A DNA stretch of 64,000 bases from an uncultured Anaerolineales bacterium (lineage in GTDB: Bacteria > Chloroflexota > Anaerolineae > B4-G1), in NCBI GenBank assembly GCA_964542755.1, contig CAZIWL010000007.1:1146-65145 (forward strand), in the 5' to 3' direction. The notes below the pieces were generated by a model. The model ran no database searches. It was not told the origin of the DNA and saw only the letters and a list, made by a program, of their open reading frames with translations. Of the stretch, positions 1,496-39,102 are shown piece after piece (the stretch's first letter is position 1; the number at the start of each line of letters is the position of its first letter). The position numbers and the translations under genes were made by a program.

Positions 1496-3808
1496 ATGCG
1501 TACTTCATCTAAGGTCACGCTGCTGGTTGTAGCCTTCCTTGCCCTCGTCGCAGTCATGTCCATAGGGGCGGCGCCCGACGGCCCCAGACTCAGGTACACC
1601 TACTCGGTTGGGGTGCCCCCAGAGACAGGGATCGAGATCCCCCAAGCCGGCCCGCTGTTGCAAGAGCCCGATTCGCTGGGATTGCCCGCTGGCGGCGCGC
1701 GTCCGCCAGCCATGGACCTCTCCCACCTGGACGGCCGCTCAACCCTCGAGCCGTCGGCCGTCAGTGCCCTCCCCTCAACGTGGGACTGGCGTGCTCAGGG
1801 AAAGGTCTCGCCGGTCAAGAATCAACTCAACTGTGGTTCCTGCTACAGTTTTGCTGCCATCGGCAACATCGAGTCGAAGTTGTTGATCGACAATGATGGC
1901 TTGTACGATCTCTCCGAGAATCACGCCAAGGAATGCAACTGGCGCGAGCGCTCCAGTTACCAGGATCCACCGGGTCAACCCTGGGGAAGCTGCGACGGCG
2001 GGAATTACCACATGCTCGTCAGCCTCTTCTCCAGAGAAGGCATCATGCTGGAGGAGCATGATCCCTACGTAGCCAGCGATGTCGCCTGCAGCTGCACCAC
2101 GGGCTGTCCCCACGTTAAGACACTCCTCGATTGGCGTATCGTGTCGGCCAATGCCATCGCCGACACCGCGGCGCTCAAGCAGGCCATCTACGATTACGGT
2201 CCCGTCTACACCATGATGCAGGAGAAGAAGAGTGAGGGTTTCGACACCTCCTACGACGGGTCGTATACCTTCGACTATTCGGGGCAGGCAGGATCCACGA
2301 ATCACTGCGTCCTGATTGTCGGGTGGAGCGACAACTTGCCATCGCTGGAGGGCGGCACGGACCCGGCGGAGGGGTGGATTGTGAAGAACAGCTGGGGCGA
2401 CGGTTGGGGTGACAATGGCTACTTCTACGCCACTTACGGCACAGCTAATCTTGGGATGTATACCTCCTATATCCACGCCTGGCAGGATTATGAGCCGAAC
2501 GGCGATGTCTGGTACTACGACGAGGACGGATGGACAAACAGATACGGGTATCAGAATGATGCAACAACAGCCTGGGGGCTGGCTCGCTTCACCCCGGATG
2601 CCAACACCCACGTCACACGGGTGGAGTTCTGGACCACGGATGTCACGACCGACGTCGATGTCTATCTCTACGATGAGTTCGATGGCTCTACGCCCACGAA
2701 CAACCTGGCCCAGGTTCTCAATCAGTCTTTTCCCGCCGCCGGGTACCATTCCGTTCCGCTCGCCGCACCCGTCCCGGTGACATCCGGCAACGATGTGTTC
2801 GCCGTCATCGCCGTCACGAACCAGTCCGACGGATATCCCATCGCCGTGGATGAGAACGGCCCCTTCGAGACTGGCACCACCTACCTTAGCCATTACGGTA
2901 CGTCATGGACCGACCTGGGTCTGACGCACGGCGCCGATGCCGCCATCCGCCTGCGCACGCGCCCGATGTCGCCCACAGCCCCGATGGTCAGCGGAATCAG
3001 CCCATCGAGCGGGGTCAACACGGGCATTGTCCACGTCACCGATCTCAGCGGCAGTAACTTCCAGGTGGGCGTCACAGTGGCTCTGACGAAGTCGAACCAG
3101 GCCCCGATTGCGGGGACGTCCGTCTCCCGGGTTAGCTCGTCCCGGATCACGTGCGACTTTGACCTCACGGGGGCCGCGACGGGACCGTGGAACGTCGTGG
3201 TGACCAATCCCGATGCGCAGCGTGCCACCCTCTTGAACGGCTTCAGTGTGACGGTCCCCGGTGCACAAGAGCACAAGGTCTATCTCCCTCTTGTGCTGCG
3301 GCGGTATCCACCGATCCCTGGGGTCCCGTTCCTGAACGCGATCAGCAACCCCGACGGGGATGGAACCTACGACGTGAGCTGGAGCCCCGCTACGCTGGCG
3401 GACACCTACACCTTGGAGGAGGATGACAGCGCTAGTTTCTCAAGCCCCTCAACGGCGTATAGCGGCTCGGGGTTGATCACCTCCGTCGTCGGCAAGGCTC
3501 CGGGCCAGTACCACTACCGCGTGAAGGCCAGCAACGTCTGGGGCCAAAGCGGCTGGAGCAACGTGCGCCAGGTCAACGTGTCGGCGGCTATGGCGCAGCT
3601 CTACATCCAGAATGACACTGGTGGAACGCTCTGCTATGAGGTCTTCGGAACCGGTATCGGCGAGCGATGCTTCTCGTTGGGAAGGCACTATTACGGCAGC
3701 TTCCCGGCGGGCACCTATGCATGGTATGTTTCCAGCTCTTGCGGTTCCGGCAGTGCCACCACCGACTACCCGCCCGGAGAGTCTAGTCACCGCTTCTGGT
3801 GCGAGTAG
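1496..3808 (+). CDS. Secreted papain-family (C1A) cysteine peptidase with lectin-like, IPT/TIG-like and FN3-like domains
   Basis: Signal peptide; WDWR; QLNCGSCYSF (oxyanion Gln and catalytic Cys); NHCVLIVGW (His); WIVKNSWG (Asn); 'PMVSGISPSSG...WNVVVTNPD' TIG-like; VYLPLVLR; 'YDVSWSP...YHYRVKASN...SGWS' FN3-like. Confidence 0.92.
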   Translation: MRTSSKVTLLVVAFLALVAVMSIGAAPDGPRLRYTYSVGVPPETGIEIPQAGPLLQEPDSLGLPAGGARPPAMDLSHLDGRSTLEPSAVSALPSTWDWRAQGKVSPVKNQLNCGSCYSFAAIGNIESKLLIDNDGLYDLSENHAKECNWRERSSYQDPPGQPWGSCDGGNYHMLVSLFSREGIMLEEHDPYVASDVACSCTTGCPHVKTLLDWRIVSANAIADTAALKQAIYDYGPVYTMMQEKKSEGFDTSYDGSYTFDYSGQAGSTNHCVLIVGWSDNLPSLEGGTDPAEGWIVKNSWGDGWGDNGYFYATYGTANLGMYTSYIHAWQDYEPNGDVWYYDEDGWTNRYGYQNDATTAWGLARFTPDANTHVTRVEFWTTDVTTDVDVYLYDEFDGSTPTNNLAQVLNQSFPAAGYHSVPLAAPVPVTSGNDVFAVIAVTNQSDGYPIAVDENGPFETGTTYLSHYGTSWTDLGLTHGADAAIRLRTRPMSPTAPMVSGISPSSGVNTGIVHVTDLSGSNFQVGVTVALTKSNQAPIAGTSVSRVSSSRITCDFDLTGAATGPWNVVVTNPDAQRATLLNGFSVTVPGAQEHKVYLPLVLRRYPPIPGVPFLNAISNPDGDGTYDVSWSPATLADTYTLEEDDSASFSSPSTAYSGSGLITSVVGKAPGQYHYRVKASNVWGQSGWSNVRQVNVSAAMAQLYIQNDTGGTLCYEVFGTGIGERCFSLGRHYYGSFPAGTYAWYVSSSCGSGSATTDYPPGESSHRFWCE

Positions 3809-4154: not shown

Positions 4155-6404
4155 CTAGGATCGAGCAGTCGCCTGCTCCCAATGCGTTTGCAGCGCCGTG
4201 AAGGGCGCCGCCGGGCCCTGGTTGCCCCGCCTGCCCGAGTTCCAGGTCATGATCAGCTCTTTCTTGGCGCGGGTGATGCCCACGTAGAGGAGCCGCATGC
4301 GCTCGGAGGCGTAGTCTAAGCGAGCTTCCTGGGTAGCTGTCCCCTCAGCGTAGCCGACGTCGGATGGCGCCATCGCGTCCTTCAGCTGGGCGAGCGCCTC
4401 CACCTCCAGGTTGAGGCTGTCGCGCACGAACCACTTCTCCCCGATGAAGGCTTCGTGGGCGAGCCCCGAGGGGAAGTTGTAGTTGTTCAAGGACATCAGA
4501 TAGACCCGGTCCCACTCCAACCCCTTCGCCTTGTGGATCGTCGCCACGATCACCTTTCCCTTGTGCCGCTCGGGATCGAAACGCATATCGTCGTCGCTCA
4601 GACCGAGGAAGCGGCGCTCGTTCCGGGCAATCACGGCCAGCTCATCCGTCAGCTCCGGCAGACGCCAATCGGGATGGCGTTCGCCGACCCGCCCGAGCAT
4701 CACCGCGAGCTTATGCGCGATCGCCAGGTCGGCCGGCTCCTTGAAGAGGTCCTGGGCCAGTGTGAGGATCAGTTGGTCGATGGGGAGCACGGTGGCCTCT
4801 TGCCAGCGACGCACGTAGTCCCGGAACGGCCTCAGATGGTCGCGCAGCCTCACGACGGATTCGGCGCCGTCGATGGTGTCGAGCCAATCCCCGCCGAGCC
4901 GTGGCCAGAGAAACGCCTCGACGTGCCGGCACTGTCTGAGGGCCTTCGCCACCCTATCCACTCGCTCCTGCAGCTCTGGCTCCTCCCGGTCCCCTCTCCG
5001 CCAGACCCGGTAGACACGGGCCAGCTTGCGTGGCGACACAGGGTCGGCGAGATACTGGATCACGTTGCCCAGGGCCCCGGCTGTCTCTCGTGTGGCCCGA
5101 GTGCTGCGTAGAAGCTCGACGTGTTCGATCTCCCGGGCCTTCAGCTCGGCGACGACCTGGAAGCCGCGCAGATTGCGGGGAACCAGGACCGCCACCGTCG
5201 CGTCCGCGTGGTGCGGCAGCCATCGTTCCAGCGAGTCGACAACCGTGTCGATCTCGCCTTGCGGGGTGAGTTTCTTGCCATAGACGTGGACCTGATCCGG
5301 CCTGTCCGATGGGTTTGATTGAGGATCGCCCTCGGGCGTGGGCTGGATGTGCGGCTCGGTCAACGCGTCCCGCACCTCGTGGACGGGATGGTCTTGCTGG
5401 GTCCAGTCGATCAGGTAATTGGCCAGCTCAATGATGCTCCTGGTGGAGCGCCCGGAGTTGGGCAGATCGTGGCGAACAACGTCATCTTCCTCGAGGAAAT
5501 CCTTCAGATACTCAGGGCTTGCCGTTGTGAATGTCTCGTAGATCGCCTGATTGGGGTCACCGACGCGGACCCAGTTACCTGGAGCGCCCTGGCACCTCGC
5601 CAGCAGGTCCAGAATGTCCTGCTGGAGCCGGCTGCTGTCCTGAGCCTCGTCCTCCAGGATGTAAGGCCAGAGACGCCGCAGGCGCGCCAGGAGCTCCTTA
5701 TCGAGCCGCAGGGCCTCGAGGGCCAGGCGGATCAGGTCGTCGAAGTCGACGGCTCCTCGGTAGTTGAGGGCTCGCTGGTAGTCTGCGTAGATGGCCCAAC
5801 CCATCTCTGCCAGCGGAAGCGGCTTGGCATGACGGTCGAGCTGGGCCCGGACGTCAGAGGGGGTCGCCTGGTAGTCCTTGGCTTGCTTGATGAGACTGTA
5901 GGCGATGGCTCCTACCAGGTCCGGCCACTTGTCCCGCCGGACCCACGCCTCGCGACGCTCCTCCAGGTCGAGTGCCATATACGCGTCGATGGCGTCTGGA
6001 TGGCTGGCGAGCCAGGCGTCCGCCGCATTCTGTCGGATCCGATTCGCCTCGCGTTCGTCCACGATCTGAAAACCGTCAGAGAGGCCCACCAGGGCCGGCC
6101 TCTCCCGCACGATGTCGTGCGCCAGCCCGTGGAGGGTACGCACCCGGTATCCGACGTGGGGCAGCAGCCCCAGATCCTTCACGAACGCCCCGACCTGGCG
6201 GGCGAAATTATCGACCGCCGAGTTCACCAGGGTCACCACCAGGACCTCCTGGTCGTCGTCCAGGAGATCACTGGCGATCAGCTTGGCGGCCAGTGCCGAA
6301 AGGGTCACTGTCTTGCCGCTGCCGGGGACGGCGGAGACGCCCATCCTCCCACCGGCATAGCGCAACACCGCTTTCTGACTGGGCCGCGGCCTAAACACCT
6401 TCAC
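4155..6404 (-). CDS. UvrD/PcrA-like SF1A ATP-dependent DNA helicase with no C-terminal nuclease
   Basis: AVPGSGKT (I), EDEAQD (II), VGDPNQAIY (III), NSGRS (IV), TIHKAKGLEWD (V), ERMRLLYVGITRAK (VI). The protein ends shortly after motif VI. Confidence 0.92.
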   Translation of the reverse strand: MKVFRPRPSQKAVLRYAGGRMGVSAVPGSGKTVTLSALAAKLIASDLLDDDQEVLVVTLVNSAVDNFARQVGAFVKDLGLLPHVGYRVRTLHGLAHDIVRERPALVGLSDGFQIVDEREANRIRQNAADAWLASHPDAIDAYMALDLEERREAWVRRDKWPDLVGAIAYSLIKQAKDYQATPSDVRAQLDRHAKPLPLAEMGWAIYADYQRALNYRGAVDFDDLIRLALEALRLDKELLARLRRLWPYILEDEAQDSSRLQQDILDLLARCQGAPGNWVRVGDPNQAIYETFTTASPEYLKDFLEEDDVVRHDLPNSGRSTRSIIELANYLIDWTQQDHPVHEVRDALTEPHIQPTPEGDPQSNPSDRPDQVHVYGKKLTPQGEIDTVVDSLERWLPHHADATVAVLVPRNLRGFQVVAELKAREIEHVELLRSTRATRETAGALGNVIQYLADPVSPRKLARVYRVWRRGDREEPELQERVDRVAKALRQCRHVEAFLWPRLGGDWLDTIDGAESVVRLRDHLRPFRDYVRRWQEATVLPIDQLILTLAQDLFKEPADLAIAHKLAVMLGRVGERHPDWRLPELTDELAVIARNERRFLGLSDDDMRFDPERHKGKVIVATIHKAKGLEWDRVYLMSLNNYNFPSGLAHEAFIGEKWFVRDSLNLEVEALAQLKDAMAPSDVGYAEGTATQEARLDYASERMRLLYVGITRAKKELIMTWNSGRRGNQGPAAPFTALQTHWEQATARS

Positions 6405-6459
6405 GCGTCAATGCCTCCAACCCCCTGATCTGCCCTGAGCCCGGTGCATCCGTCCGACG

Positions 6460-6550
6460 GGCCCCGCGTCACACACCACGCGCCACGGATTACGCTGCCC
6501 ACCCAACCCATCAAGCCGTTCACACGTCGGCCGACCCATCCCCCCCAATC
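6460..6550. repeat. Degenerate 7/8-mer tandem low-complexity tract between the helicase genes
   Basis: cgtcaca|caccacg|cgccacg|gattacg, followed by ccca/ccatc-rich units (cccaccca acccatca ... gccgaccc atcc). Confidence 0.3.
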
Positions 6551-6555
6551 CAGTC

Positions 6556-8736
6556 TCAACGCCCTGTGTTCTCCCGCGCAGCGGTTTCCCTCAAGACTCT
6601 CTGAACGGCCTTCAGGAGTGGACCGGTCTGCTCGTGACCCTGCTCGCCCAACTCGCTCAACCCGAGGAAGACCTTCTGACGGCAACGACGAATCAGTCCT
6701 TGGCTCAGCCGCTGGAGGGCCTCCTGTCGGACGGCGACTTCGTCGCTGTCTGTCCAGGTCTCATCGTCTCTTCCTGGCGGCGGCCAGTGTCGGCTGAGAA
6801 CGTACGGATGGGTCAAAGGCTGATAGAGGCGTTCCCACCACCCCTGACCCCCGATGTTGAGCCAGAACTGGTAGTCTACTGGTCGATTTCGGATGATGAA
6901 CGTGTAAGCGGGGGCCAGAAGAATCGCCTCCCCCCGCTCCGGCCCCCAGCTCCGGACGTACTGGGCTGCAATCACGCCCTCTTCGACCATCGTGACATAT
7001 TCCTGGCCAAGGGAGGTCGGTGCCCCGTTCGTCCCTGTATATGGATACCCTCCGTCCTCAGTGACCCAGCGGAACTTGCGCACAGACTCGACGAGGTTGG
7101 CCGCCACCTCGGCCCCATCGAAATTGCGGTGGAACCCGTAGCCTTGCTGCGAGAGGAGCTCCCCGAAGAGACGGCTCAGGAAATGGTCGAGCGGTACGTG
7201 TTGCTCGTCGGCATCCACATAGGCCTGGATCCATACCCTGAGTCCCTCATATCGCTCGCCGAGCACATAGGTTAGCCGCTCTTGCATCTCGGGCTTGATG
7301 GCGTCAAACGAGCCCAGCGTGGGGTTCCCGTCGGACAACCGGTACACAATGCTGCTGAGCAGCTGCGCGCGGACGAGATCCATTCCCTCGACAGCCTGAA
7401 TCAGAGCTGCGGCCACGTCGTATTTGGTGGGATGCACCCCCCAGGCCGGGTGCGCGATGGCCGCCAGGGTCAGCAGGCAGCGAGTGGCTGCCTCCTCTCT
7501 CAGAGCCCGGGACGGTCTATGTGACTGCGTAGGAACGCCTCGTGCCTCAAGACGATTGGTGAGCGAGAAGCGCAGGGCGTCACTGAGAAACGGGGCCAGA
7601 ACGACGATCTCTCCTGGGGATACGCCCTCTTGCTCGACGAGGATCTCGACTTGGTCAGCGACCCAGTCGAGCATCTGAGGATAGTAACGGTGCGGCTCGA
7701 AGATCAGGGCTCGGTCCGTAAACACGTGGGTCTTTGAGGCGTCGTCAGCGGAGTTGAGCTGGCTCGAGAGCGCGGTACCGAGCGCCGCCACGTCCGGCGA
7801 CATCACGAAGGAGTCAGAGAAGGTGACGTGGTGATCACAGAGGTCGCGCAGAGAGTGGGCGCTTTGCGGGTCGGCACCTAGGAAGCGGCGATACCCGGCG
7901 GCCGAGTCACAGATCAATAGAGAGGATCGGGTCAAAGGGATCCACTCTCGCAGCAGATCGTGGGCGACGGGCACGTCCTCCTCGACGTTGTCTACCAGGA
8001 TGTGCTGATACCGGCCCGTCAGGTAGTCTCGGCAGATGGGCCGGGGCCAGAGATACGTGCAGAAGACCTCAACCTGGAGGGAGAAATCGAGGAGATTGTG
8101 ATCGAGGCAGTAGCGCCTGAAGCGGTTGGCGCACGTTTGAGCCTCCTCGTAGATCCGCTCGCGGCCGGGCTCGCCACTCCAGGCGGCCCTCAGCCTCTGC
8201 CCAATCCGCGTGTAGGAGAACCCGACCACGGCCGACTTGTTCAGGTTATCAATAATCTGACTGTAGAGCCGATTCCGATCAATAGTGACGCTCTCGAAGG
8301 CCCCCTCATCCAGGAGGGGGCGGATGACGCGTGCCATGTAGTACTGGGCCGTCTCCAGAGTCAAGAAGGTAGGGGGGTGATCTGGATGCCCGAACCCGGC
8401 CTCTTCGACGATCAGCGGCCAGAAGAGGTCCACCATACGCTGAGCCAGGCCTCCCAGTGTGAGCAGTGTAACCCTGCCCCGCGTGTCCAGGAGGGGCTGG
8501 TGGAGGGCCTCATAGTAGGGGACGCTCAACGTCCGTTGGGGCGTGAAGACCAGCATAGAACGCGCCGACGCGCCTGCCTCCAGCAGATGAAGCATGCGCG
8601 CTACCCCTGCCGTCGTCTTCCCCGTCCCGGCCGGGCCTTCCAGAAAGAGCTTGCTCCCGACGGAGCGATTCAACACACTCTGCTGCGAGGGCGACAGATT
8701 GTCCAAGGCGCAATGATCGGCGTAATCGAAGGTCAT
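6556..8736 (-). CDS. Degenerate SF1 helicase-like protein (AddB/AdnA/RecC-like partner), no nuclease domain
   Basis: Intact Walker A (LEGPAGTGKT), altered Walker B (ILVDNVEED), no recognisable motifs V/VI; directly upstream of and co-oriented with the active helicase. Confidence 0.75.
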   Translation of the reverse strand: MTFDYADHCALDNLSPSQQSVLNRSVGSKLFLEGPAGTGKTTAGVARMLHLLEAGASARSMLVFTPQRTLSVPYYEALHQPLLDTRGRVTLLTLGGLAQRMVDLFWPLIVEEAGFGHPDHPPTFLTLETAQYYMARVIRPLLDEGAFESVTIDRNRLYSQIIDNLNKSAVVGFSYTRIGQRLRAAWSGEPGRERIYEEAQTCANRFRRYCLDHNLLDFSLQVEVFCTYLWPRPICRDYLTGRYQHILVDNVEEDVPVAHDLLREWIPLTRSSLLICDSAAGYRRFLGADPQSAHSLRDLCDHHVTFSDSFVMSPDVAALGTALSSQLNSADDASKTHVFTDRALIFEPHRYYPQMLDWVADQVEILVEQEGVSPGEIVVLAPFLSDALRFSLTNRLEARGVPTQSHRPSRALREEAATRCLLTLAAIAHPAWGVHPTKYDVAAALIQAVEGMDLVRAQLLSSIVYRLSDGNPTLGSFDAIKPEMQERLTYVLGERYEGLRVWIQAYVDADEQHVPLDHFLSRLFGELLSQQGYGFHRNFDGAEVAANLVESVRKFRWVTEDGGYPYTGTNGAPTSLGQEYVTMVEEGVIAAQYVRSWGPERGEAILLAPAYTFIIRNRPVDYQFWLNIGGQGWWERLYQPLTHPYVLSRHWPPPGRDDETWTDSDEVAVRQEALQRLSQGLIRRCRQKVFLGLSELGEQGHEQTGPLLKAVQRVLRETAARENTGR

Positions 8737-8746
8737 ACTACCGCGC

Positions 8747-10177
8747 TTAGTCGGCGGTCTCGCCTCGTCCCTTCATGAATAGATAGCCGATGAGAGAGAC
8801 GATGACGGTCGCTGCTGCGAAGAGCCAGGTGGAGCCGGGGACACGCTTGAGCGAGCGCCATTTCTCCCCCAGTGACAGGTTCATGAGGAAGCCGGCGATG
8901 GGCTTGTGCTCCCGGCGGGCGATAGCGATGCGCTCCTTGAGGAGCTGTCTCACCTCGCCTGGCGGCAGCGAGGATACCAGGTCGGCCAGCATGGCCCCTT
9001 CTTCCTGGGTGATGGACGCCTTCTCTTCCATCAGCTCCTGGTAGGAATCTGCGGTCTGTTCGACGATGTTCGACCAGTCCAGGTGGCTCACCCGCTCCCG
9101 AGCATTCTGGCAGAGAGCCTCGTAGTCCGCTGCGGAGAGATCGCAGATGCGGCGCACGCTCTGTGCGAACCGTCTTGGGCCTGTCTCCTTCGGAAGGCGC
9201 GCACCGACCTGGTCGTCCACGAGTTCGTCGATCGTCTCATTCGAGAGCCCCACGACGGGCGTCCCCGAGGCGAGTGCCTCGATGACCACCAGGCTCTGCA
9301 CCTCCATCTTAGAGGCCGAGACAAAGATGTGGCTCCGCTCAAGGTAGGAGGGGATCTCCGGATGGGGAACCTGCCCGGCGAACAACACGTTCTCCAGATC
9401 TTGATCACGGCACGTCTGCTCCAGGCGCACTCGATACTCAGGGTTCAGCGCCTTGCCCAGCAGGACCAGCTTGTAGTGCTCTGGCAGGTGGGCAAGGGCG
9501 TTGATGAGATAGGCCTGGTTCTTGCGCTCGCTGAGGTACCCGATGAACACAAGCATCTTCTCCTCAGCCTCCACATCCGCGGTGGCACGGCCCGTATAGT
9601 GATCGAGATCCCGCCCATTCGGGATCACGAAGACCTGTCCCCTGTAGCCGAATTCGCGCAGCGCGCTCAAGGCTGACTGGTTCAGGGCTATGATGGCGTC
9701 GCAGTTGGTGTAGAAATCCGTCAGCACGCGACGTGAGATGGACTCACTCAAGGACCCCTGAAGCAGTTTCATGTCCAACGCGTCCGTCGCTCCGAAATCC
9801 AGGACCTTGCCGGGCAGCACGTGACTCGTGTGCACAAAGGGCACGCGGTTCATCTTGGCCCATATCTGGCCGATCAGGCCTACCAGGGCGGGTTCGTGGG
9901 CGTGGACGACGTCAGGACTGAAGGTGTCAAGGAAGTCGAACAGAGCCCGCACCGTCTTGGCTGAGAGTGCCGGCATCTGAAACTCACCTTCTCCCGCGCT
10001 TCGCACGCCAAACACGTGGAGTTGACTATCTTCTTCCTGGAACAGCCCCGTCTCGCGGGAGGGGCAGATCATGACCGTCTCGTGGTGTTCCGCGAAGTGA
10101 CGCGCAAGCTCGTGAGCCACGCGCCCTTCGCCTCCCCCGTGACCTCTCCTGAACAACGACAAGAAAGCGACTCTCAT
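8747..10177 (-). CDS. GT4 (GT-B) glycosyltransferase, diacylglycerol-glucosyltransferase-like, with a C-terminal extension and membrane anchor
   Basis: GGGEG; DVVHAHEP; VHTSH; IPNG; FIGYLSERKN; EVQSLVVIEALASGTP (EX7E region); C-terminal hydrophobic helix WLFAAATVIVSLIGYLFM. Confidence 0.88.
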   Translation of the reverse strand: MRVAFLSLFRRGHGGGEGRVAHELARHFAEHHETVMICPSRETGLFQEEDSQLHVFGVRSAGEGEFQMPALSAKTVRALFDFLDTFSPDVVHAHEPALVGLIGQIWAKMNRVPFVHTSHVLPGKVLDFGATDALDMKLLQGSLSESISRRVLTDFYTNCDAIIALNQSALSALREFGYRGQVFVIPNGRDLDHYTGRATADVEAEEKMLVFIGYLSERKNQAYLINALAHLPEHYKLVLLGKALNPEYRVRLEQTCRDQDLENVLFAGQVPHPEIPSYLERSHIFVSASKMEVQSLVVIEALASGTPVVGLSNETIDELVDDQVGARLPKETGPRRFAQSVRRICDLSAADYEALCQNARERVSHLDWSNIVEQTADSYQELMEEKASITQEEGAMLADLVSSLPPGEVRQLLKERIAIARREHKPIAGFLMNLSLGEKWRSLKRVPGSTWLFAAATVIVSLIGYLFMKGRGETAD

Positions 10178-10252
10178 ACTCTCCTCTGAGCCTATGTATC
10201 CTCCGGTGGAGCCGTGTTGGCCTCGGGTTCGAAGGTCTTCCTGGGTGGGTCC

Positions 10253-11416
10253 TCAGGTGCCTCTGGTGTCAAAGTCGAAACGGTCGAAGACCTCCCTGTA
10301 CCGGTCCACGATCTGCTCCTGGGTCAGTCCCATCTCCTCGAGCGAATACTCGTGCTCACTCTCGTGTTGACGGGCTCGCCGCGTCGCCTGGATCAGTATC
10401 TCGTCAAACTCGGAGCTCAGCTCCAAGCCAAATCGCTCATAGATCGTTCTCACCACCTCGTGCGCGTCGGTGACCAGATCGTCGAAACTCACCACGATGG
10501 CGCTATTCGGAAGAGCTCTGTCGAGATGCTCCAGGGGGTAGGTGTACCAGTGGTGGGCCATGTCGAGGATGTACTTGCGACTGCTGTAGGTCTCGACGGG
10601 ATCTCCCAGGAGCTGCCATTCATTCTCCTTCAAACTGATGTACGAGGGGATCATGTCGAGAGGGTTGCGCGCAAGATAGATGAACTTGGCGTCCGGAAAC
10701 TCGCGATACAGAGTGTCGACCATCGGTGAGAAATGGGGGTCCTTGGCCAGATAGCATCTCTCGCTGCCACTGTGGGCATAGATGTGTCGCTGAAGGCAGT
10801 GCGTATAGAACGCCATGATCCGTTCTTTTTCTTCTTCCGGCATCTGACTGTCGAAATACGTATACCGTTCAGCCTCATCCAGCATCGCCACGTACAGCCA
10901 TATCTTGAGCGTCGAGAAGATGTGGATCAGAAGGTACTCATCCTCTTCTGGTGCACGGAGGGCGATCCTATGAAGGACGTTGTCCTCTTGCCAGCCCTCC
11001 TCCAGCATGCCCAGCAGCCTGGCCATCGGTCTTCCGATCCGGTTGTCCAGCGAGGAGAGTGCCCAGAACGCTTTCCTCATTGTGACGGAAGGTGCGAGAA
11101 GCATCTCCCAAGTGCGCATAGAGAGGAACGTGGCCTCGTCTCTTGCCAGAAGACGCTGAAGAAAGGTCGTGCCGCTCCGTGGGTTCCCCACGATATAGAT
11201 GGGTCCTTTGATTCTTGCCTTGCGATAGCCTGGATAGAGGATCTCGTCAAGCAGGAAACCGGACCACGTCATAATCTGGACCAAGCCGTAGAGTGAGCCC
11301 GCTAGCGCTACCAGCCCGATCCGCTTCAGAGTCAGACGGTAGGCGGTCCCTTTGCTTTGAAAGAGTTGTTTGTAGAAAAATCGGGCGAAGCCCGCGAAAT
11401 TGTATGCCACGCCCAC
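10253..11416 (-). CDS. PAPS-dependent sulfotransferase with an N-terminal membrane segment
   Basis: IVGNPRSGTTFLQRLL (5'-PSB loop); LAKDPHF; YLARNPLDMIPSYISL (3'-PB motif); FDDLVTD. Confidence 0.88.
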   Translation of the reverse strand: MGVAYNFAGFARFFYKQLFQSKGTAYRLTLKRIGLVALAGSLYGLVQIMTWSGFLLDEILYPGYRKARIKGPIYIVGNPRSGTTFLQRLLARDEATFLSMRTWEMLLAPSVTMRKAFWALSSLDNRIGRPMARLLGMLEEGWQEDNVLHRIALRAPEEDEYLLIHIFSTLKIWLYVAMLDEAERYTYFDSQMPEEEKERIMAFYTHCLQRHIYAHSGSERCYLAKDPHFSPMVDTLYREFPDAKFIYLARNPLDMIPSYISLKENEWQLLGDPVETYSSRKYILDMAHHWYTYPLEHLDRALPNSAIVVSFDDLVTDAHEVVRTIYERFGLELSSEFDEILIQATRRARQHESEHEYSLEEMGLTQEQIVDRYREVFDRFDFDTRGT

Positions 11417-11471
11417 CCCTTCTTGTCCTCAGAAAGCTGCCAGGTGCACTGCCAACACGCCCAACAGCGCC

Positions 11472-12359
11472 CTAAAGCACTCCAGCTTGCACCATGATGG
11501 CCTCTATGGTCTCAAGCTCAGCGTCGTGCAGTGTCCGGAGTGGCGAGCGGACGGGCCCGCCGTAGTACCCCAAGAAATCCAGAGCGGCTTTGAGGCCGGG
11601 CACACCGAAACCCGATGTGACCGCGGTGTTGAGCGGGACCAGTCTCTGTTGGAGGATAGCGCCTTCACGCCATTCCTCCCGCCGGTAGTGATGGTATAGA
11701 TCGATCAGCATCTGGGGCGCGACATTCGCCAGGGCCATCACGCCGCCGACGGCGCCTACAGCCAGGCCTGGGAAGAAGAAGCTGGCAGATCCAGCCAGGA
11801 CTTGGAGGTCGTCCTCAGCCGCGCCCACGATTTCGGCGAGTTTGCCGACGTTACCGCCACTGTCCTTCAGTCCCACCACATTCGGATGACGCCCGATATC
11901 CAAGATGGTCTCCGCGCTCATATCGATGTGGGTAAACCGCGGCATGTTGTAGATCATTACCGGTACAGGTACCTTTTCCGCCACCGCCTCAAAGTGGCGG
12001 CGCAGGGCGCCCGGGGACATCTTCCCCCCGTAATAATGAGGGGTCAGCACGAGCACCACGTCGGCACCGGCGTCGGCAGCCAACTGGCTGACGGCGATAG
12101 TCTGCCGTGTTGACTCACATCCTGTGCCGGCGATGACGAGTTTGTCCTCCGGCACCGCCCGACGCACCGTCTGCCAGACCTTGACCTTTTCTTCCGTCGT
12201 CAGGTAGACGCCCTCCCCGTTGGAGCCGAGGACAACGTACCCGGACAGGTCATACTCGTTCCAGCGGCCCAGGTTCTCGGCCAGGGCTCCCAGGGCGAGG
12301 TCTCCCCGCTCATCGAAAGGTGTCGGGATGGGCGGAAAGACGCCGTGCAAGGATAGCAT
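11472..12359 (-). CDS. DHDPS-family class I aldolase, 4-hydroxy-2-oxoglutarate aldolase (HOGA1)-like
   Basis: GSNGE (not DapA GTTGE), GCEST, TPHYYGGKM, IYN, Schiff-base KDSGG, LAGSA, GAVGGVMALANV and GYYGGPVRSPL match the recalled HOGA1 pattern. Start moved to ATG 12359 (GGAG RBS). Confidence 0.8.
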   Translation of the reverse strand: MLSLHGVFPPIPTPFDERGDLALGALAENLGRWNEYDLSGYVVLGSNGEGVYLTTEEKVKVWQTVRRAVPEDKLVIAGTGCESTRQTIAVSQLAADAGADVVLVLTPHYYGGKMSPGALRRHFEAVAEKVPVPVMIYNMPRFTHIDMSAETILDIGRHPNVVGLKDSGGNVGKLAEIVGAAEDDLQVLAGSASFFFPGLAVGAVGGVMALANVAPQMLIDLYHHYRREEWREGAILQQRLVPLNTAVTSGFGVPGLKAALDFLGYYGGPVRSPLRTLHDAELETIEAIMVQAGVL

Positions 12360-12478
12360 CTTTGTCTCCATAAGGGTGTCGTTGCTCCTCATCCTCTTGT
12401 GTTCCGCGGATTGCCAACCCCTGCTTCTCAGAGCCCCCCGCATCGAACCGCCGGAGACTCAGCATCGTGGGGTGTGGA

Positions 12479-13666
12479 CTAAGCTCCTACCCAGGCTTGC
12501 TGCGCCGCCGCCAGGCCCGCCCCCACATCAAACCCGTAGCCCACGTCCGCCAGGCCCTGCTCGACGGCGCTGATGGTGGCCATCACGTCGGACTGATTGA
12601 CTGCCCCCATATGCCCGATGCGGAAATAGCTTGACTTGATATCCGGGTGGAGGCCGCCGGCGAGGATGACCCCCGCCTCGTTGATGCGTGCAAGCACGGA
12701 GCGATCCACGCCAGCGGGGAAGCAGGGTGCCGTAAGCGTGCGGGCTGCCACCTCAGCGGTTGCCGGGACCTGTGCCATTCCCAGGGCGGCGACAGCTGCC
12801 TTCACCGACCTGCTGACCCGTCGGTGGCGCTCAAATCGGGCGTCCATCCCCTCCTCGAGGATCTGCCCGAGGCTGATGTTAAGGGCCCAGATCAGGTTCA
12901 CCGGCGGCGTTCCGAAGTAGCCGGTCTCGCGAGCCTCGTAAGCTTCCATGATCGGCAGCCATTTCGTCCAGTCTGAGTAGTAACTCACCACGGGGGACTT
13001 CCGCTCCCAGAAAGCCTTCATCGCCCGGGGTCCGGCCATCACCAGCGCAAGCCCGGGCGGAACACCGATCGCCTTCTGCGACGCAGTCAGGGCGAGGTCG
13101 ACGCCCCAGGCATCTTGACGGAGCTCCTCACCGGCAACCGAGCAGACGCCGTCGACGACGACGAGCACGTCGTGCTCTCGCCCGATCTCTGCCAGCGCTT
13201 TCACGTCGGCTGCGACCGCCGTCGACGTGTCGACCTGGGTGATCGTCATCAGCTTATAGCCTCGTCCCGAGCTCGCCTCGTGTGCTTCCAGGGCTACCCG
13301 AACCTCATCCAGCGGCGGCACGTCGCCTATGGCGGGGGCGCGAACGTGGTTGACTTCGGCTCCGTAACGCTGCAGGATCTCGCCGAAGCGATCCCCGAAG
13401 ACCCCTGTGTTGACCACCAGGGCTGCATCGCCGGGTTCGATCAAATTCGAAGCGGCCATATCCATGGCGAGTGTGCCGGATCCGGCGACGACGAACGGCT
13501 GCGCCTCAGGGGCGAGAAACACGTGGCGCAGTCGCTCCAGCGCTGTCCCAAAAACCTCGACAAACTGGGGAGCGACGTGGCTTGTCGTAGGCATACCCAT
13601 TGCCCTCATCACAGCCGGCGTAAACTCAATGGGGCCCGGTATCATAAGAAGCTTGCGATCTTTCAT
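12479..13666 (-). CDS. Class V PLP aminotransferase, alanine-glyoxylate/serine-pyruvate aminotransferase family
   Basis: MIPGP; GSGTLAM; DTSTA; VDGVCS; TASQKA (PLP lysine); YFGTPPV; FRIGHMG. Confidence 0.9.
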   Translation of the reverse strand: MKDRKLLMIPGPIEFTPAVMRAMGMPTTSHVAPQFVEVFGTALERLRHVFLAPEAQPFVVAGSGTLAMDMAASNLIEPGDAALVVNTGVFGDRFGEILQRYGAEVNHVRAPAIGDVPPLDEVRVALEAHEASSGRGYKLMTITQVDTSTAVAADVKALAEIGREHDVLVVVDGVCSVAGEELRQDAWGVDLALTASQKAIGVPPGLALVMAGPRAMKAFWERKSPVVSYYSDWTKWLPIMEAYEARETGYFGTPPVNLIWALNISLGQILEEGMDARFERHRRVSRSVKAAVAALGMAQVPATAEVAARTLTAPCFPAGVDRSVLARINEAGVILAGGLHPDIKSSYFRIGHMGAVNQSDVMATISAVEQGLADVGYGFDVGAGLAAAQQAWVGA

Positions 13667-13717
13667 CTGTTCTACTCCTCCTCAGAATGTGGACGGTTAG
13701 GGTTATGAGGGTCAGCT

Positions 13718-14302
13718 TCAGCCGAGCTGTCCCAGTATGCTTAGAAGTTCCCGCACAAAGTTCTCAAATAGACGTAGTCCCATCTGTGCTCCAGACCAAG
13801 CCGCAATCAAGCAGAGCGGAACGACGCTGAACGCAAGCCCGCCCCAACCAATCAGAACCGCGAGGCGCGCTAACTTTTCGTCACCACACTTCCCTCTGCG
13901 AGCCATACCCCGGGCCCGATAGGCCATGGCCAAGCCCATTACGGCCCCCAGTGGCGGGAAGAAGAACGCGCCGAGCACGCTGACCAGCATGCTTACTGCC
14001 GCCGGGTTGCCCCGGAGCCGCCCCAAGAAGGCGCATAGGCCCGTGACCTGGCTACCACAGCGGTTGCAGTAGAGGGAACCCGCCTCGTTTCCGGCCCCGC
14101 ACTGATAGCACGTGATCGTCTTCTTGGGTTCGCCGACAGGCTCGGAATGGTCTAGCGTCGCCTGCGGCGCCGTTGCGCTTTGTCCGCAATACTTGCACCG
14201 TGTTCTCCCTGGCTCGACTTCAAGGAAATCGGGACTGCCGCAACCTGGGCACTTGAAGAAGTCGGCCAGGTACAATCGGTCTTTCTCCCTGTAAGGGGCC
14301 AC
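13718..14302 (-). CDS. Zinc-ribbon membrane protein (DUF4190-like C-terminus)
   Basis: CPGC...CKYC and CYQC...CNRC ribbons, followed by two hydrophobic helices (FFFPPLGAVMGL; LAVLIGWGG). Confidence 0.7.
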   Translation of the reverse strand: MAPYREKDRLYLADFFKCPGCGSPDFLEVEPGRTRCKYCGQSATAPQATLDHSEPVGEPKKTITCYQCGAGNEAGSLYCNRCGSQVTGLCAFLGRLRGNPAAVSMLVSVLGAFFFPPLGAVMGLAMAYRARGMARRGKCGDEKLARLAVLIGWGGLAFSVVPLCLIAAWSGAQMGLRLFENFVRELLSILGQLG

Positions 14303-14435
14303 GCTCCCCTCATCTGTCTCGGCCGGTCCTTTCGAGATCGCCTCCGGTCACCATAGTGTAGCCCATCCCTCTCGGTAGAGCAAGTAACACCCGGCAGCCC
14401 CCGCCTTCGACTGATCCTATGGCTCGAGGGTCCTA

Positions 14436-14464
14436 TTGCTCCTGGTCCGGCGCCGTGGTACAAT
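14436..14464 (+). promoter_or_regulatory. sigma70 promoter with extended -10
   Basis: TTGCTC(14436-14441)-17 nt-TACAAT(14459-14464), with TG at the extended -10 position. Confidence 0.6.
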
Positions 14465-14472
14465 TTGAAGCA

Positions 14473-14500
14473 GACGCCGGTGGAGAGGCGTCGTTTTTTG
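14473..14500 (+). terminator. Promoter-proximal hairpin with T-tract
   Basis: GACGCC-ggtggaga-GGCGTC followed by GTTTTTTG. Confidence 0.55.
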
Positions 14501-14541
14501 TGCCTGGGACATGACCGAAGATTCGGCCCCCGTGCTTCGAG

Positions 14542-14961
14542 ATGGGGTGCCCGACACGTTTGAGGGCTTCGCACAAGCTACAGCGAATTATGGGGAATGG
14601 AGGACATCCGCGACTGGCGCGGGAGCGTAAAACGCTCAGGGCGATGGTCCACATCGCCTGCGAGGGGCGCCACGGGACGCAGGACACCCTCTGCGACACC
14701 TGCAATCACCTCTTGCGCTACGCCCTGGGACGCCTGGATAAGTGTCCATATCAAGCCTCCAAGCCCACCTGCGCCAACTGCCCCATCCACTGTTACCATC
14801 CCGCGATGCGGGAGGAGATCCGCTCGGTGATGCGGTACGCGGGTCGGTGGATGATGCTTCGCCATCCCTTCCTGGCTCTGGGACACCTGTTTGACGGCCT
14901 GCGCAGGGCTCCGCAAGATGGGCCCCGTCAGGACAGAGAGCCGGGACACGCACCGGACTAG
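14542..14961 (+). CDS. YgbA-like Cys-rich protein ('nitrous oxide-stimulated promoter' family)
   Basis: RERKTLRAMVHIAC...H...LCDTC...YALGRLDKCPY...KPTCANCPIHCY...VMRYAG..MMLRHP is the family pattern. Alternative start at ATG 14590. Confidence 0.85.
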   Translation: MGCPTRLRASHKLQRIMGNGGHPRLARERKTLRAMVHIACEGRHGTQDTLCDTCNHLLRYALGRLDKCPYQASKPTCANCPIHCYHPAMREEIRSVMRYAGRWMMLRHPFLALGHLFDGLRRAPQDGPRQDREPGHAPD

Positions 14962-14990
14962 ACACACGTGAGTAAGGACGACAGAATCAG

Positions 14991-15893
14991 ATGACATCCC
15001 TCTTACAGAGGATACCTTTGAACCACTTTCCTTCGGAGCAGCTCGTCGCGCTCCGGAACGTGATGCGCACCCGCGCGTACAGCCGCATGACACAAGCCTT
15101 CCAAGCTGCCAAGACGGTTCTGTTCGACGATGATGCGCGCCTGGTCTTCTTTAGCGACCTTCACCGCGGAGACAGCTCACGCGCCGATGCTTTTGCCCAG
15201 AATGAGGAGCTTTTTCTTGGGGCGCTGCGTCACTATCTTGAGCGAGGCTTCAGCTACGTGGAGGTCGGTGACGGTGACGAGCTGTGGCAGAACCGCCGTC
15301 TGGGCGATGTCAAGCGGGCCCATCGGCGCACGTTCGACCTGCTCCACACCTTCGCCGCGGTTGGGCGGCTCCACTTGGTCTTTGGAAATCACGACATCCA
15401 GGGTTTCCAGCGCCGGTGGATGAAGAAAGACGGCTTGACGGCGCATGAGGGGCTCGTGCTGAAGCATGCCAGAAATGGTCAGCGCATTTTCGTCGTCCAT
15501 GGTCATCAAGTGGACTTCAAGAGCGATGCCCTCTATCGGCTTTCACGCTTGATCATCCGCCACGTCTGGCGGCACGTACAGAACCTGGGGATAACGGGCG
15601 TCGCATCGTCAATCGGGGAGTCCCGGAATCGCGAGACGATACGCCGGCGGGTCTCCGAGTGGATCGAGGCGCGCAAGCAGATGGTCATCTGCGGCCACAC
15701 CCACACGCCGAAGTGCGCTGGCCCGGGCGAACCGCCGTACTTCAATACCGGCTCCGGCGTCTTCGACGGGTACATCACGGGGCTCGAGATTCAGGACGGT
15801 GAGATAGCCCTGGTGAAGTGGTTCCGATCGGAATGGGGCCGGGCAGAAAGGTGGCTCCTGGCACCGCCGCGCCCGTTGAGCCTCGCTAGCTGA
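14991..15893 (+). CDS. Calcineurin-like metallophosphoesterase
   Basis: FSDLHRGD, VGDGDE, GNHD, VHGH, CGHTH, FNTGS. The start may be further downstream. Confidence 0.88.
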   Translation: MTSLLQRIPLNHFPSEQLVALRNVMRTRAYSRMTQAFQAAKTVLFDDDARLVFFSDLHRGDSSRADAFAQNEELFLGALRHYLERGFSYVEVGDGDELWQNRRLGDVKRAHRRTFDLLHTFAAVGRLHLVFGNHDIQGFQRRWMKKDGLTAHEGLVLKHARNGQRIFVVHGHQVDFKSDALYRLSRLIIRHVWRHVQNLGITGVASSIGESRNRETIRRRVSEWIEARKQMVICGHTHTPKCAGPGEPPYFNTGSGVFDGYITGLEIQDGEIALVKWFRSEWGRAERWLLAPPRPLSLAS

Positions 15894-23308: not shown

Positions 23309-23391
23309 AGGCTCGGCCCTCCCAATACGTGGGGCAGATGTCGCCCCCCGTTAGATCTTAGACGTGGCAGCTTGCTCTCTCACTATCTAAC

Positions 23392-24294
23392 CTATCCGGG
23401 CATCACGTTCAAACCCCGGGACCGTAGACGCTCCCGGACCTCTTCAATCCTCTCCGGCCCGGGCGGTTGGATCTCTGGCATAGGACAATGCTTGCCCAAC
23501 CGCTCATACTTATCGCGCCCGATCTCATGATACGGCAACACGTCAATTCCATCAAGGGCCGGAAGGCTGAGGGCGAGGGTGCCGATGGCGCGAAGACTCG
23601 ACTCATCCTCGTTGATTCCCGGTATCAGCGGCACACGTAGAAGGATGTGCTCACCGTGCTGGGAGAGTGCACGCAGGTTTGCCAGGATGCGCTCGTTGGA
23701 CACACCCGTGACCTCCCGGTGGCGCTGGTCGTCAACCAGTTTCAGATCGTACAGGAAAAGGTCCACGTCCTCCCGCAGCTCATCAAGCACAGTCCAGGGT
23801 CCAAAGCCGCAGGTGTCCAGACAGGTGTGAACCCCCTCTCGGCGGCAAGCCGCCAGGAGACCGCGCAAAAAGTCCGGCTGGGACAGCGGTTCACCCCCTG
23901 AAAACGTGACGCCACCCTCGGACGTATCATAGAAAGGTGCGTCACGCAGGATCTCGTCCACCACCTCGCCGACGGTCATCTCCCGGCCCACCATCTCACG
24001 TGCCTCGGCGTAGCAGACCTCGACACAGGCCCCGCAGCGGGTGCAGCGCCTCCTGTCCGTGGTCATGTCACACTCATCGGATGCGATAGCGCCCTGCTTG
24101 CAGACAGCGACACAGGCCTGGCATCCGATACACCGTCCAGGGCGCAGGATCAGCTCCGGCGCGAGTAACTGTCCCTCGGGGTTATGACACCACCAGCAGT
24201 GCAGGGGGCAACCCTTGAGAAACACCGTGGTCCGAATCCCCGGGCCGTCGTGTATCGAGAACTTCTTGATGTCAAAGACGATTCCGCTCAACAT
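23392..24294 (-). CDS. GRE activating enzyme (radical SAM) with a ferredoxin-like insert
   Basis: DGPGIRTTVFLKGCPLHCWWCHNPE; CIGCQACVAVC and CTRCGACVEVC; GGVTFSGGEP; LPYH. Confidence 0.95.
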   Translation of the reverse strand: MLSGIVFDIKKFSIHDGPGIRTTVFLKGCPLHCWWCHNPEGQLLAPELILRPGRCIGCQACVAVCKQGAIASDECDMTTDRRRCTRCGACVEVCYAEAREMVGREMTVGEVVDEILRDAPFYDTSEGGVTFSGGEPLSQPDFLRGLLAACRREGVHTCLDTCGFGPWTVLDELREDVDLFLYDLKLVDDQRHREVTGVSNERILANLRALSQHGEHILLRVPLIPGINEDESSLRAIGTLALSLPALDGIDVLPYHEIGRDKYERLGKHCPMPEIQPPGPERIEEVRERLRSRGLNVMPG

Positions 24295-38245: not shown

Positions 38246-38265
38246 AGGCCCGGCGGCGCCCGGCG

Positions 38266-39102
38266 CTAGACCTCCTCGCCGAAACGGGGGCTGTAGCGCA
38301 GGAAGACCGCATACCCAACCGCGAGTACGACGAGGGATGTCACGGCGGTGCGAAGCAAGAAATCGAGTCCCGTGTAGGTCCCCCGGTAGAGCAGGTCTCG
38401 ATAGGAGGCGATCACCGACGCCATAGGATTCAGGCGTCTGAGCCAAAGTTGCGCGTCGAACGTGATCCCCAAAATCGTCTTCTCCTCGCCTATCTGTGTG
38501 ATGGGATAGAAGACGGGCGTGAGAAAGAACCATGCCTGCATCAATACGCTCAGGATGATCTGGGTGTCGCGGTAGAAGACGTTAAGCGTGGCAAGCATCA
38601 GGCATATGCCCAGGGCGAAAGCCATTTGCACAAGGATGGGTATCGGCAGCAAGAGGGCCCAGGGCGTTATCCTCGCCCCGGAGACCAGAGCCAGACCAAA
38701 GAAGACGGGCAGCGCGATCACGAAGTTGACCAGGTTCGACAGGAGAATCGAGATGGGCAGTACCTCTCGCGGGAAGTAGACCTTCTTGATGAGGTGGGCG
38801 TTCCCAACGATGCTGTTCGTCGCCTCCATGACTGCCTGTGAGAAGAACTGCCACGGCAGGAGCGCCGAAAGAAGGAAGACGTGGTAGTGTTCGAGATCGG
38901 AGCGGATGAACAGGAAATTGAAGACAACCGTGAACACCAGCATCATCAGCAGTGGATTCGCCCAAGACCACACAATCCCCAGCACGGAATTCCTGTAGCG
39001 AACCTTCAAGTCTCGTACCACAAGATTGCGAATCAGCTCGCGATACGTCCAGAGCTCGCGGAGCCGACCACCTATGCTTCTGGAGAACTGGTTTCCGCTC
39101 AC
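38266..39102 (-). CDS. wzm: ABC-2-type polysaccharide export permease
   Basis: RDLKVRYRNSVLGIVWSWANPL; LIKKVYFPRE; FYRD; FFLTPVFYP; LNPM. Confidence 0.92.
   Translation of the reverse strand: MSGNQFSRSIGGRLRELWTYRELIRNLVVRDLKVRYRNSVLGIVWSWANPLLMMLVFTVVFNFLFIRSDLEHYHVFLLSALLPWQFFSQAVMEATNSIVGNAHLIKKVYFPREVLPISILLSNLVNFVIALPVFFGLALVSGARITPWALLLPIPILVQMAFALGICLMLATLNVFYRDTQIILSVLMQAWFFLTPVFYPITQIGEEKTILGITFDAQLWLRRLNPMASVIASYRDLLYRGTYTGLDFLLRTAVTSLVVLAVGYAVFLRYSPRFGEEV

Follow-up and report, generated by a model that had tools for sequence, protein, structure and literature searches.

A helicase pair of one active and one degenerate UvrD-like protein in Anaerolineae, putative core of a split AddAB/AdnAB-like end-resection system

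Background

In this study we analyse two adjacent helicase-fold genes in a 64-kb stretch of DNA from an uncultured Anaerolineales bacterium (contig CAZIWL010000007.1; the whole stretch is called the window below, and all positions are counted within it), and compare them with the described machines that process DNA ends. The mycobacterial AdnAB is composed of two UvrD-like motor-nuclease subunits, of which the AdnA motor is dispensable. The distribution of AdnAB is reported to be limited to Actinobacteria, while the family of the present pair is found in Anaerolineae; overall, the reported share of bacterial genomes lacking all of RecBCD, AddAB and AdnAB is about 12% (PMC6452273). In AddAB, the AddB subunit has a UvrD-like fold in which all helicase motifs are lost but motif I, and binding of nucleoside triphosphate (NTP) stabilises the recognition of Chi; its 4Fe-4S ligands C801/C1121/C1124/C1130 define the iron-staple nucleases, which include AddB, Dna2, Exo5 and Cas4 (PMC3321194). 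In Deinococcus radiodurans, moreover, DNA ends are resected by UvrD and RecJ as part of the RecFOR pathway (PMC2806897).

The pair studied here consists of a 749-amino-acid (aa) superfamily 1A (SF1A) helicase, the motor, and a 726-aa degenerate helicase-fold protein, the partner. We consider, with a probability of roughly 60%, that they form the helicase core of a split, three-polypeptide end-resection system of the AddAB/AdnAB-like kind, with the nuclease working in trans. The literature searched contains no description of such a cluster for Chloroflexi/Anaerolineae.

Results

An intact motor and a degenerate partner

Both genes are on the minus strand with the motor gene 3' of the partner gene, and the open reading frame (ORF) coordinates are those of the first-pass annotation.

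6556-8736, minus strand: partner gene, from ORF and translation; 726 aa, UvrD fold, without nuclease domain
6405-6555, minus strand: intergenic spacer between partner and motor, 151 nt, poorly conserved in sequence
4155-6404, minus strand: motor gene, from ORF; 749 aa, SF1A UvrD-like helicase, motifs I-VI intact, without nuclease domain
6309-6332, minus strand: motor motif I (Walker A), AVPGSGKT, read in the sequence and invariant in 30 orthologues
5637-5654, minus strand: motor motif II, EDEAQD, with the canonical DE, read in the sequence and invariant in 30 orthologues
4260-4550, minus strand: motor region spanning motifs V and VI, from sequence and orthologue alignment
4506-4550, minus strand: motor motif V, IVATIHKAKGLEWDR, with core TIHKAKGLE, from sequence and orthologue alignment
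4260-4292, minus strand: motor motif VI, LLYVGITRAKK, with core VGITRA, from sequence and orthologue alignment
8614-8637, minus strand: partner motif I (Walker A), GPAGTGKT, aa 34-41; G34, G39 and K40 invariant in alignment A2
7975-7995, minus strand: partner degenerate motif II, VDNVEED, aa 248-254, with Asn in place of the catalytic Glu
7867-7914, minus strand: partner motif III-like segment, ICDSAAGYRRFLGADP, aa 275-290; the motif III Gln is lost; aligned by hhalign to motor GDPNQAIYETF
6784-6876, minus strand: partner Trp-rich C-terminal motif, DYQFWLNIGGQGWWERLYQPLTHPYVLSRHW, aa 621-651, in place of motif V, family-specific
6673-6705, minus strand: partner motif VI-like segment, SQGLIRRCRQK, aa 678-688; L681 invariant, C685 near-invariant, R684 conserved in at least 90%

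Alignment A2 holds partner relatives at 27-65% identity; it was too diverse for the genome scan, for which alignment A3 was used. The first-pass view of the 749-aa protein as an SF1A helicase with all motifs intact is fully borne out: motifs I-VI are all present and invariant in the 30 orthologues (motif III being GDPNQAIYETF and motif IV NSGRST), and the protein has what defines SF1A, the 1A/1B/2A/2B fold together with motifs I, Ia and II-VI. It matches PF00580 (5.9e-38) and UvrD_C (3.3e-23), and the UvrD_C match stops at residue 723 of 749, thus leaving no space for a nuclease domain in the last 26 residues. The closest solved structures are UvrD, Rep and PcrA. Nevertheless the motor is far under the NCBIfam equivalog cut-offs of UvrD, PcrA, Rep, AddA and RecB, with 109.7 bits against a cut-off of 1144 for TIGR01075, 112.9 against 911 for TIGR01073, 121 against 951 for TIGR01074, and 82.5 against 707.65 for the addA model TIGR02785. 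A protein 100% identical to the motor (P0433) is found in three independent metagenome assemblies of ENA. As a side observation, the motor orthologue of one relative (L012, positions 12214-14616 of that locus) is about 800 aa long and has four tandem 11-residue repeats (RGEVPLGPSLQ-like) in its C-terminal region.

The partner retains Walker A and has DN in place of DE, as first noted, and both features are conserved in its family, N250 in at least 90% of the sequences and E252 and E253 in all sequences of the family alignments. In the structural model a beta strand (245-248) precedes motif II, which hhalign aligns to YILEDEAQD of the motor family. A motif Ia-like PQRTL is also retained, according to sequence reading, hhalign and predicted secondary structure, and the motif III-like segment reads D..AGYRRFLGADP, with G281, R283, F285, G287 and A288 invariant in A3. 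Motifs IV and V are replaced. The Trp-rich motif found in place of motif V has the consensus QFWLxxGxxGWWERxxQPLTHP, with Q623, W625, W633 and L641 invariant down to 27% identity, and no known family covers it. The partner had been described as devoid of motifs V and VI. This is right for motif V, while a motif VI-like GLIRRCR (aa 680-686) with a conserved Arg is kept; because of the helix-strand pattern of the partner model, we infer that it is a motif VI remnant equivalent to VGITRA. The window's partner keeps every family-invariant residue, as does its motor. Judged by its motifs, the partner looks like an NTP-binding, hydrolysis-impaired module.

In domain searches the partner gives a weak PF00580 match in the N-terminal part only (1e-9) and no NCBIfam family match, the AddB model included. 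A Pfam scan of both proteins finds neither PF12705 nor any other nuclease domain, which agrees with the first-pass claim, and the structural model of the partner shows none either. The AlphaFold2 model of the partner, built from 51 homologues (pLDDT 72.5, pTM 0.71), has a full-length UvrD-type fold. Foldseek matches it to UvrD, Rep and PcrA across about 740 columns, with E-values down to 4e-20 (UvrD), and also to AddB 3u44_B (E 2.4e-16, TMq 0.56), AdnB 6ppr_B (TMq 0.59), AddA and RecB, with no RecC chain among the top 50 matches. Comparison of the partner with PDB chains by single sequence and profile matched only the Walker A of assorted helicases, and was uninformative beyond the identity of the P-loop.

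Between the two proteins themselves BLASTP gives no significant match. With hhalign, the two families are collinear over about 500-520 columns (probability 72%, E 3.4e-5); the alignment pairs the Walker A of both families, the partner DN with the motif II DE, and the motif III-like segment with its counterpart. This suggests that partner and motor are paralogues, and the collinearity fits a tandem duplication. The 151-nt spacer that separates the genes has no minus-strand terminator-like site, no conserved sequence and no Rfam match.

A separate nuclease and recJ follow the pair in relatives

To view the locus in its family, we scanned one genome per GTDB species, and at least 582 species-level genomes have partner relatives. 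The counts of gene order below refer to the best 80 of these loci, and each denominator includes judgeable loci only. In the loci L001-L003 the gene order is partner (715-779 aa), motor (745-760 aa), a PF12705 PD-(D/E)XK protein (274-276 aa) and RecJ, with junction overlaps of 8 nt and 17 nt. Instead of the 151-nt gap of the window, many relatives have an 8-nt overlap of partner and motor gene, as in the gene calls of L001-L003. Overall, 70 of 73 loci have the motor downstream of the partner and on its strand; the two genes are co-conserved, a point that the first-pass annotation had raised. The nuclease of about 276 aa comes after the motor in 52 of 60 loci, with recJ behind the nuclease gene in 39 of 48. 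With gene ends obtained by extrapolation, motor and nuclease genes overlap or lie no more than 30 nt apart at 25 of 36 junctions. Such fixed order and tight junctions of motor and nuclease are typical of subunits of one machine. The early suggestion that a nuclease is recruited in trans is thereby strongly backed, and the label "nuclease-less" is right for the locus of the window and its clade, while it fails for the system as a whole.

The nuclease of the relatives matches PF12705 over its full length (8.5e-30), with residues D119, D133-W-K135 and Q151xxxY155. Four invariant cysteines, C20...C231-x2-C234-x5-C240, have exactly the spacing of the AddB 4Fe-4S ligands (C...CxxCx5C). By these residues and by its model the protein is predicted to be an iron-staple (4Fe-4S) PD-(D/E)XK nuclease. 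The model (pLDDT 77.5) matches the Cas4-family ACE1, the AdnA nuclease domain, Exo5, Cas4, Dna2 and AddB; the best E-values are those of ACE1 and Cas4-family structures, and the best TM-score is that of the AdnA nuclease domain (TMq 0.56). The protein ends in an invariant acidic tail, ...LDFEQIAEIEY, with D265, E271 and E273 invariant in an alignment (A4) of 41 orthologues (the gene of L001 is at 14362-15186 of that locus). The model has pLDDT below 50 from residue 234 and the tail is predicted to be disordered. By analogy with the C-terminal tail of SSB, which binds single-stranded DNA, it could be a docking peptide that tethers the nuclease to the helicase pair or to RecJ. The RecJ neighbour clears its equivalog cut-off (TIGR00644, 503 against 397 bits). 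Other genes of DNA metabolism near the clusters of relatives are dprA, topA and an xerC-like gene.

Distribution and inheritance of the partner family

The partner has more than 6000 close database homologues in Anaerolineae at 55-94% identity, and clustering at 50% leaves 1068 representatives of the family, of which 384 have E below 1e-30. Among the 150 best representatives, the full-length members have about 650-760 aa, with one outlier of 1419 aa (P0253), and none matches the query past the helicase-fold region of about 700 aa, so that no fused nuclease is found there. The outlier, considered as a fusion candidate, has no Pfam domain. In the database these proteins are named only "hypothetical protein", "superfamily I DNA/RNA helicase" or "ATP-dependent helicase". 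As many as 79 of the 80 best loci are titled Chloroflexota or its sublineages, namely Anaerolineales, Anaerolineaceae, Thermoflexales, Caldilineales and metagenome-assembled genomes (MAGs) labelled Chloroflexia, the exception (L086) being a contig of 2.2 kb from a MAG with the title Arcobacter sp. More distantly, the family has members in the cultured Flexilinea flocculi (WP_062283346.1, "hypothetical protein") and in one MAG labelled Clostridiales. The family is essentially confined to the class Anaerolineae of Chloroflexota.

Across species, the mean pairwise identity is 61% for the partner, 63% for the motor, 54% for RecJ and 51% for the nuclease. In conservation the degenerate partner equals the active motor, and it is not decaying. 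The distance matrices of the four proteins agree with one another (Mantel r 0.80-0.90), the family has stable housekeeping neighbours without mobile-element signatures, and it is inherited vertically.

Comparison with the described systems

Like AddAB, the pair combines one active SF1A motor with a UvrD-fold subunit that keeps Walker A, the degenerate subunit is encoded first, and the cluster of relatives includes an iron-staple nuclease with the AddB cysteine spacing. With its UvrD fold and Walker A the partner has the features of the N-terminal part of AddB; this is a functional resemblance only, as no AddB model matches. Unlike in AddAB, no nuclease is fused to either protein: in AddAB of the Bacillus subtilis type, AddA is an SF1A helicase joined to a RecB-type nuclease, while in the motor UvrD_C is followed by just 26 residues, without PF12705; AddB carries its 4Fe-4S nuclease at the C-terminus, while the equivalent domain is a separate gene in relatives, unlinked in the window. 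There is thus one free 276-aa nuclease instead of two nucleases, recJ is linked in relatives, no AddA or AddB model matches at cut-off, and elements resembling motifs III and VI persist in the partner. The first-pass label "AddAB/AdnAB-like" accordingly stands for the combination of an active motor with a degenerate partner keeping Walker A, and not for sequence affinity, since the motor is closer to Rep/PcrA/UvrD and the partner has no AddB match.

AdnAB is similar in having two UvrD-like proteins encoded in tandem, probably paralogous in the present pair, with the less canonical one upstream, and the best TM-scores point to it, for the partner (AdnB) as well as for the nuclease of relatives. 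However, AdnA and AdnB have about 1050-1100 aa with a C-terminal nuclease each, against 726 and 749 aa without nuclease here, and AdnA has both Walker A and Walker B (PMC3321194) while the partner is without the Walker B DE. RecBCD shares an active SF1A motor (RecB) accompanied by an inactivated helicase-fold subunit (RecC), and end resection for RecA loading is the role proposed here as well. It differs in that RecC has no NTP site whereas the partner P-loop is conserved, that the RecB nuclease, a fused domain, lacks an Fe-S cluster, and that RecD (SF1B) provides a second motor; no RecD-like gene adjoins the pair in the window or related loci.

The resection by UvrD and RecJ in D. radiodurans resembles the proposed system in that a UvrD-type helicase would act with RecJ at double-strand breaks (DSBs), and recJ is linked in most relatives; the dedicated degenerate partner and the Fe-S nuclease are additional here, and NCBIfam cut-offs do not place the motor among the UvrD orthologues. 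Finally, the stand-alone iron-staple nucleases Cas4, Exo5 and the Argonaute-associated ACE1 have the same fold and cysteine pattern as the nuclease of the relatives, which however is not found with CRISPR or Argonaute genes, is fixed beside the pair and recJ, and has an acidic tail.

The proposed machine

In the proposed machine, the 749-aa protein would be the single active SF1A motor, translocating 3'-5' and unwinding from a DNA end. It would form a heterodimer with the partner, analogous to the helicase part of AddA with the helicase-like part of AddB, or to AdnB with AdnA. The partner would bind ATP by its conserved P-loop without efficient hydrolysis, its catalytic Glu and motifs IV and V being lost, and, like the helicase-like half of AddB, may bind or scan DNA or have a regulatory role as a subunit that does not translocate and handles one unwound strand. 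The nuclease, a separate polypeptide of about 276 aa of the AddB/AdnA/Cas4/Exo5 type, would be recruited in trans, possibly by the acidic C-terminal tail. RecJ, a 5'-3' single-stranded DNA exonuclease, would digest the 5' strand and leave a 3' tail, so that the broken end is resected for RecA-dependent repair.

Several points weigh against this reading. Neither nuclease nor recJ is found in the window or its flank, nor beside the pair in L004-L011, and the third component could have been lost in the organism of the window. The motor scores better on the Rep, PcrA and UvrD models than on AddA and RecB, though far below all cut-offs, and the best structural matches of the partner are UvrD rather than AddB or RecC; because of these affinities, the likeness to AddAB may be convergence and not homology. 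The congruence of the recJ distances is as high as that of the others, showing vertical inheritance and not specific co-evolution, and we have set the mirror-tree correlation aside as evidence of the latter. Tight translational coupling is not universal either, as 22 of 70 loci have unrelated genes inserted between the two. The order of the pair is kept despite these insertions.

The inserted genes were considered as hidden nucleases, and this was ruled out, since they are unrelated to the system. In six loci (L037, L040, L042, L044, L052 and L076) the insert encodes about 560 aa; that of L037 is an M14 zinc carboxypeptidase (PF00246), and the other five share its N-terminal sequence. Lipoprotein-like ORFs are inserted in L062, L077 and L078, and different short ORFs in L069.

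The motor might instead be a general UvrD/PcrA-type helicase, engaged in nucleotide excision repair, mismatch repair, clearance of replication conflicts or anti-recombination, with the partner as an accessory and the cluster as a loose DNA repair neighbourhood. Its family scores and PDB relatives speak for this, as do the dprA, topA and xerC-like genes near the clusters and the unrelated genes sometimes inside them. We nevertheless consider it unlikely, because the motor is about 10-fold under the equivalog cut-offs of UvrD, PcrA and Rep, because the order partner-motor-nuclease is fixed with most motor-nuclease junctions tight, and because a dead helicase with an iron-staple nuclease corresponds to the parts list of AddAB/AdnAB and not to the accessory set of UvrD.

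A wider and more tentative view, which we rate somewhat below even odds, is that the system represents a fourth bacterial class of DSB resection beside RecBCD, AddAB and AdnAB. It would combine three unfused polypeptides, an ATP-binding, non-hydrolysing SF1 "scanner", a single SF1A motor and a free iron-staple nuclease docked by its tail, with an operonically coupled RecJ, and could be either the ancestral unfused state or a convergence from UvrD duplication. Were this so, the lineage of the window would show that the helicase core is genetically, and perhaps functionally, separable from the nuclease. A system of Anaerolineae that is class-wide and has escaped annotation would close some of the gap of about 12% mentioned above, and for annotation its three- or four-gene signature is recognisable. 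A split system would also be convenient for experiments on the role of the inactivated subunit and its NTP site, on the recruitment of the Fe-S nuclease, and on a possible origin of AddAB and AdnAB by fusion of such parts.

Lost linkage in the lineage of the window

In the 64-kb window, no match was found to the nuclease and RecJ of relatives by tblastn, nor to a hidden Markov model of the nuclease family in six frames. The window sequence recurs identically in three ENA metagenome assemblies, whose contigs (L098-L100) extend it by about 6 kb past the left edge; this flank contains gyrA and the genes of a PMT_2 protein and a second C1 peptidase, and neither nuclease nor recJ is present in it. 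The closest relatives are L004-L008, with 72-86% partner identity, and L009-L011, with 65-68%. These eight loci share the synteny of the window, namely aminotransferase, in some cases a dihydrodipicolinate synthase (DHDPS) family gene, sulfotransferase, GT4 glycosyltransferase, partner and motor with a convergent peptidase, and none has a nuclease adjacent to the pair. L012 has the same sulfotransferase-GT4 context upstream, and downstream retains the nuclease and recJ after an inserted thymidylate-synthase-like ORF. Since L012 keeps them under the same upstream synteny, the arrangement of the window is, as read from gene order, a derived rearrangement that broke the linkage directly downstream of the motor gene.

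A scan of metagenome contigs with the L012 nuclease gave nine loci at no more than 59% identity; all eight interpretable ones have the nuclease next to the motor and/or recJ, and none has it clearly apart from the cluster. We infer that relocation of the nuclease is more likely than loss in the genome of the window, because the window's proteins keep all family-invariant residues and because nuclease and recJ usually travel together. The rearrangement would have split the pair from a nuclease-recJ module, and the nuclease, if retained, would be encoded elsewhere and act fully in trans.

The lineage could also be truly nuclease-free, the nuclease being lost and the heterodimer acting as a pure unwinding motor, with resection by unlinked nucleases such as RecJ. 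The absence of nuclease and recJ from the window and its flank, and of both from beside the pair in the closest relatives, is what this would predict, and a second clade (L062, L069, L077 and L078) likewise has no adjacent nuclease. Moreover, recombination by the AdnAB helicase is reported to occur without resection by its nucleases (PMC5314763). Still, the search covered about 70 kb of a multi-megabase genome, L012 shows the break to be a mere loss of adjacency, and the two proteins of the window retain their invariant residues; as loss of recJ is improbable, its usual company with the nuclease makes relocation more parsimonious. We thus rate a nuclease-free lineage as improbable, slightly more so than the general helicase. 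As a separate observation, the MAG CAVXCH01 of the second clade has two partner-motor copies on separate contigs (L062 and L078), neither with an adjacent nuclease, which could be a duplication, strain heterogeneity or a binning artefact.

Defence function and assembly error as unlikely alternatives

The first-pass annotation had also left room for a role in defence, and the pair might be an anti-phage module such as the Gabija helicase GajB or another helicase-nuclease system. PADLOC GajB profiles match the motor (4.5e-41) and, weakly, the partner (6.6e-07), and L003 happens to adjoin SIR2/TIR STAND genes. These matches reflect generic UvrD similarity, and no neighbour like GajA (OLD-family ATPase/Toprim) is found in the window or in L001-L003. 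The distribution is class-wide and vertical rather than patchy: one class contributes at least 582 species genomes with the family, the distances are congruent with recJ and the neighbours are housekeeping genes, which is the pattern of a core gene and not of a defence island, so that a defence role is very unlikely. Lastly, the pair might be a standard AddAB or AdnAB that seems to be without nuclease domains because errors of sequencing or assembly cut them off or hid them, as the order of degenerate gene first and motor second, like addB-addA, might suggest. This is refuted by the full length of both ORFs against thousands of homologues (about 700-750 aa), by AddA, AddB and RecB models far below cut-off or absent, and by the identical motor protein in three independent assemblies.

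Neighbouring genes

The gene next upstream of the pair is used above as a synteny marker of the clade.

8747-10177, minus strand: GT4 glycosyltransferase gene, upstream of the partner, its stop 10 nt before the partner start

We do not count it among the components of the machine. It belongs to a block of a class-V aminotransferase, a DHDPS-family protein, a sulfotransferase and GT4 directly upstream of the partner (8747-13666, minus strand), which is found in the window and in L004-L012 and L015. Given the distance of 10 nt, the helicase pair may be co-transcribed with these sugar or sulfation genes in the clade of the window. On the other side, a papain-family protease gene converges on the motor gene. 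Actually, there are two tandem genes of such papain-family (C1) proteases, with lectin-like/DUF4082 domains, at 199-1140 and 1496-3808 on the plus strand. The left one appears to run past the window edge in the identical contigs (L098 12597-17250), and the equivalent in L008 is a giant protein of 1714 aa with Kelch/beta-propeller repeats.

Farther away, a glycyl-radical enzyme (PFL-like and Gly_radical, 788 aa) adjoins its radical-SAM activase (300 aa) at 20942-24294 on the minus strand. The replication-restart helicase PriA (35642-38533, minus strand, 963 aa, with 3'BD, Cys-rich region and PriA_C) is a further DNA-repair helicase of the window, unrelated to the pair. In the gap of about 0.5 kb between priA and a GT4 gene, the sole long ORF (38582-38971) has a third-position GC fraction (GC3) of 0.34 against 0.7-0.8 for real genes and no Rfam match, and is probably non-coding. 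The window also has a same-strand array of about nine large membrane proteins of 690-930 aa (42875-63906, minus strand), which resembles a striking paralogue expansion. Among the four array proteins tested, one (61519-63906) has no Pfam match, and three (44370-46706, 49012-51798 and 54091-56430) match PMT_2, an ArnT/PMT-like glycosyltransferase family. Immediately downstream of the array is a Wzy_C (O-antigen-ligase-like) gene at 42875-44365 on the minus strand.

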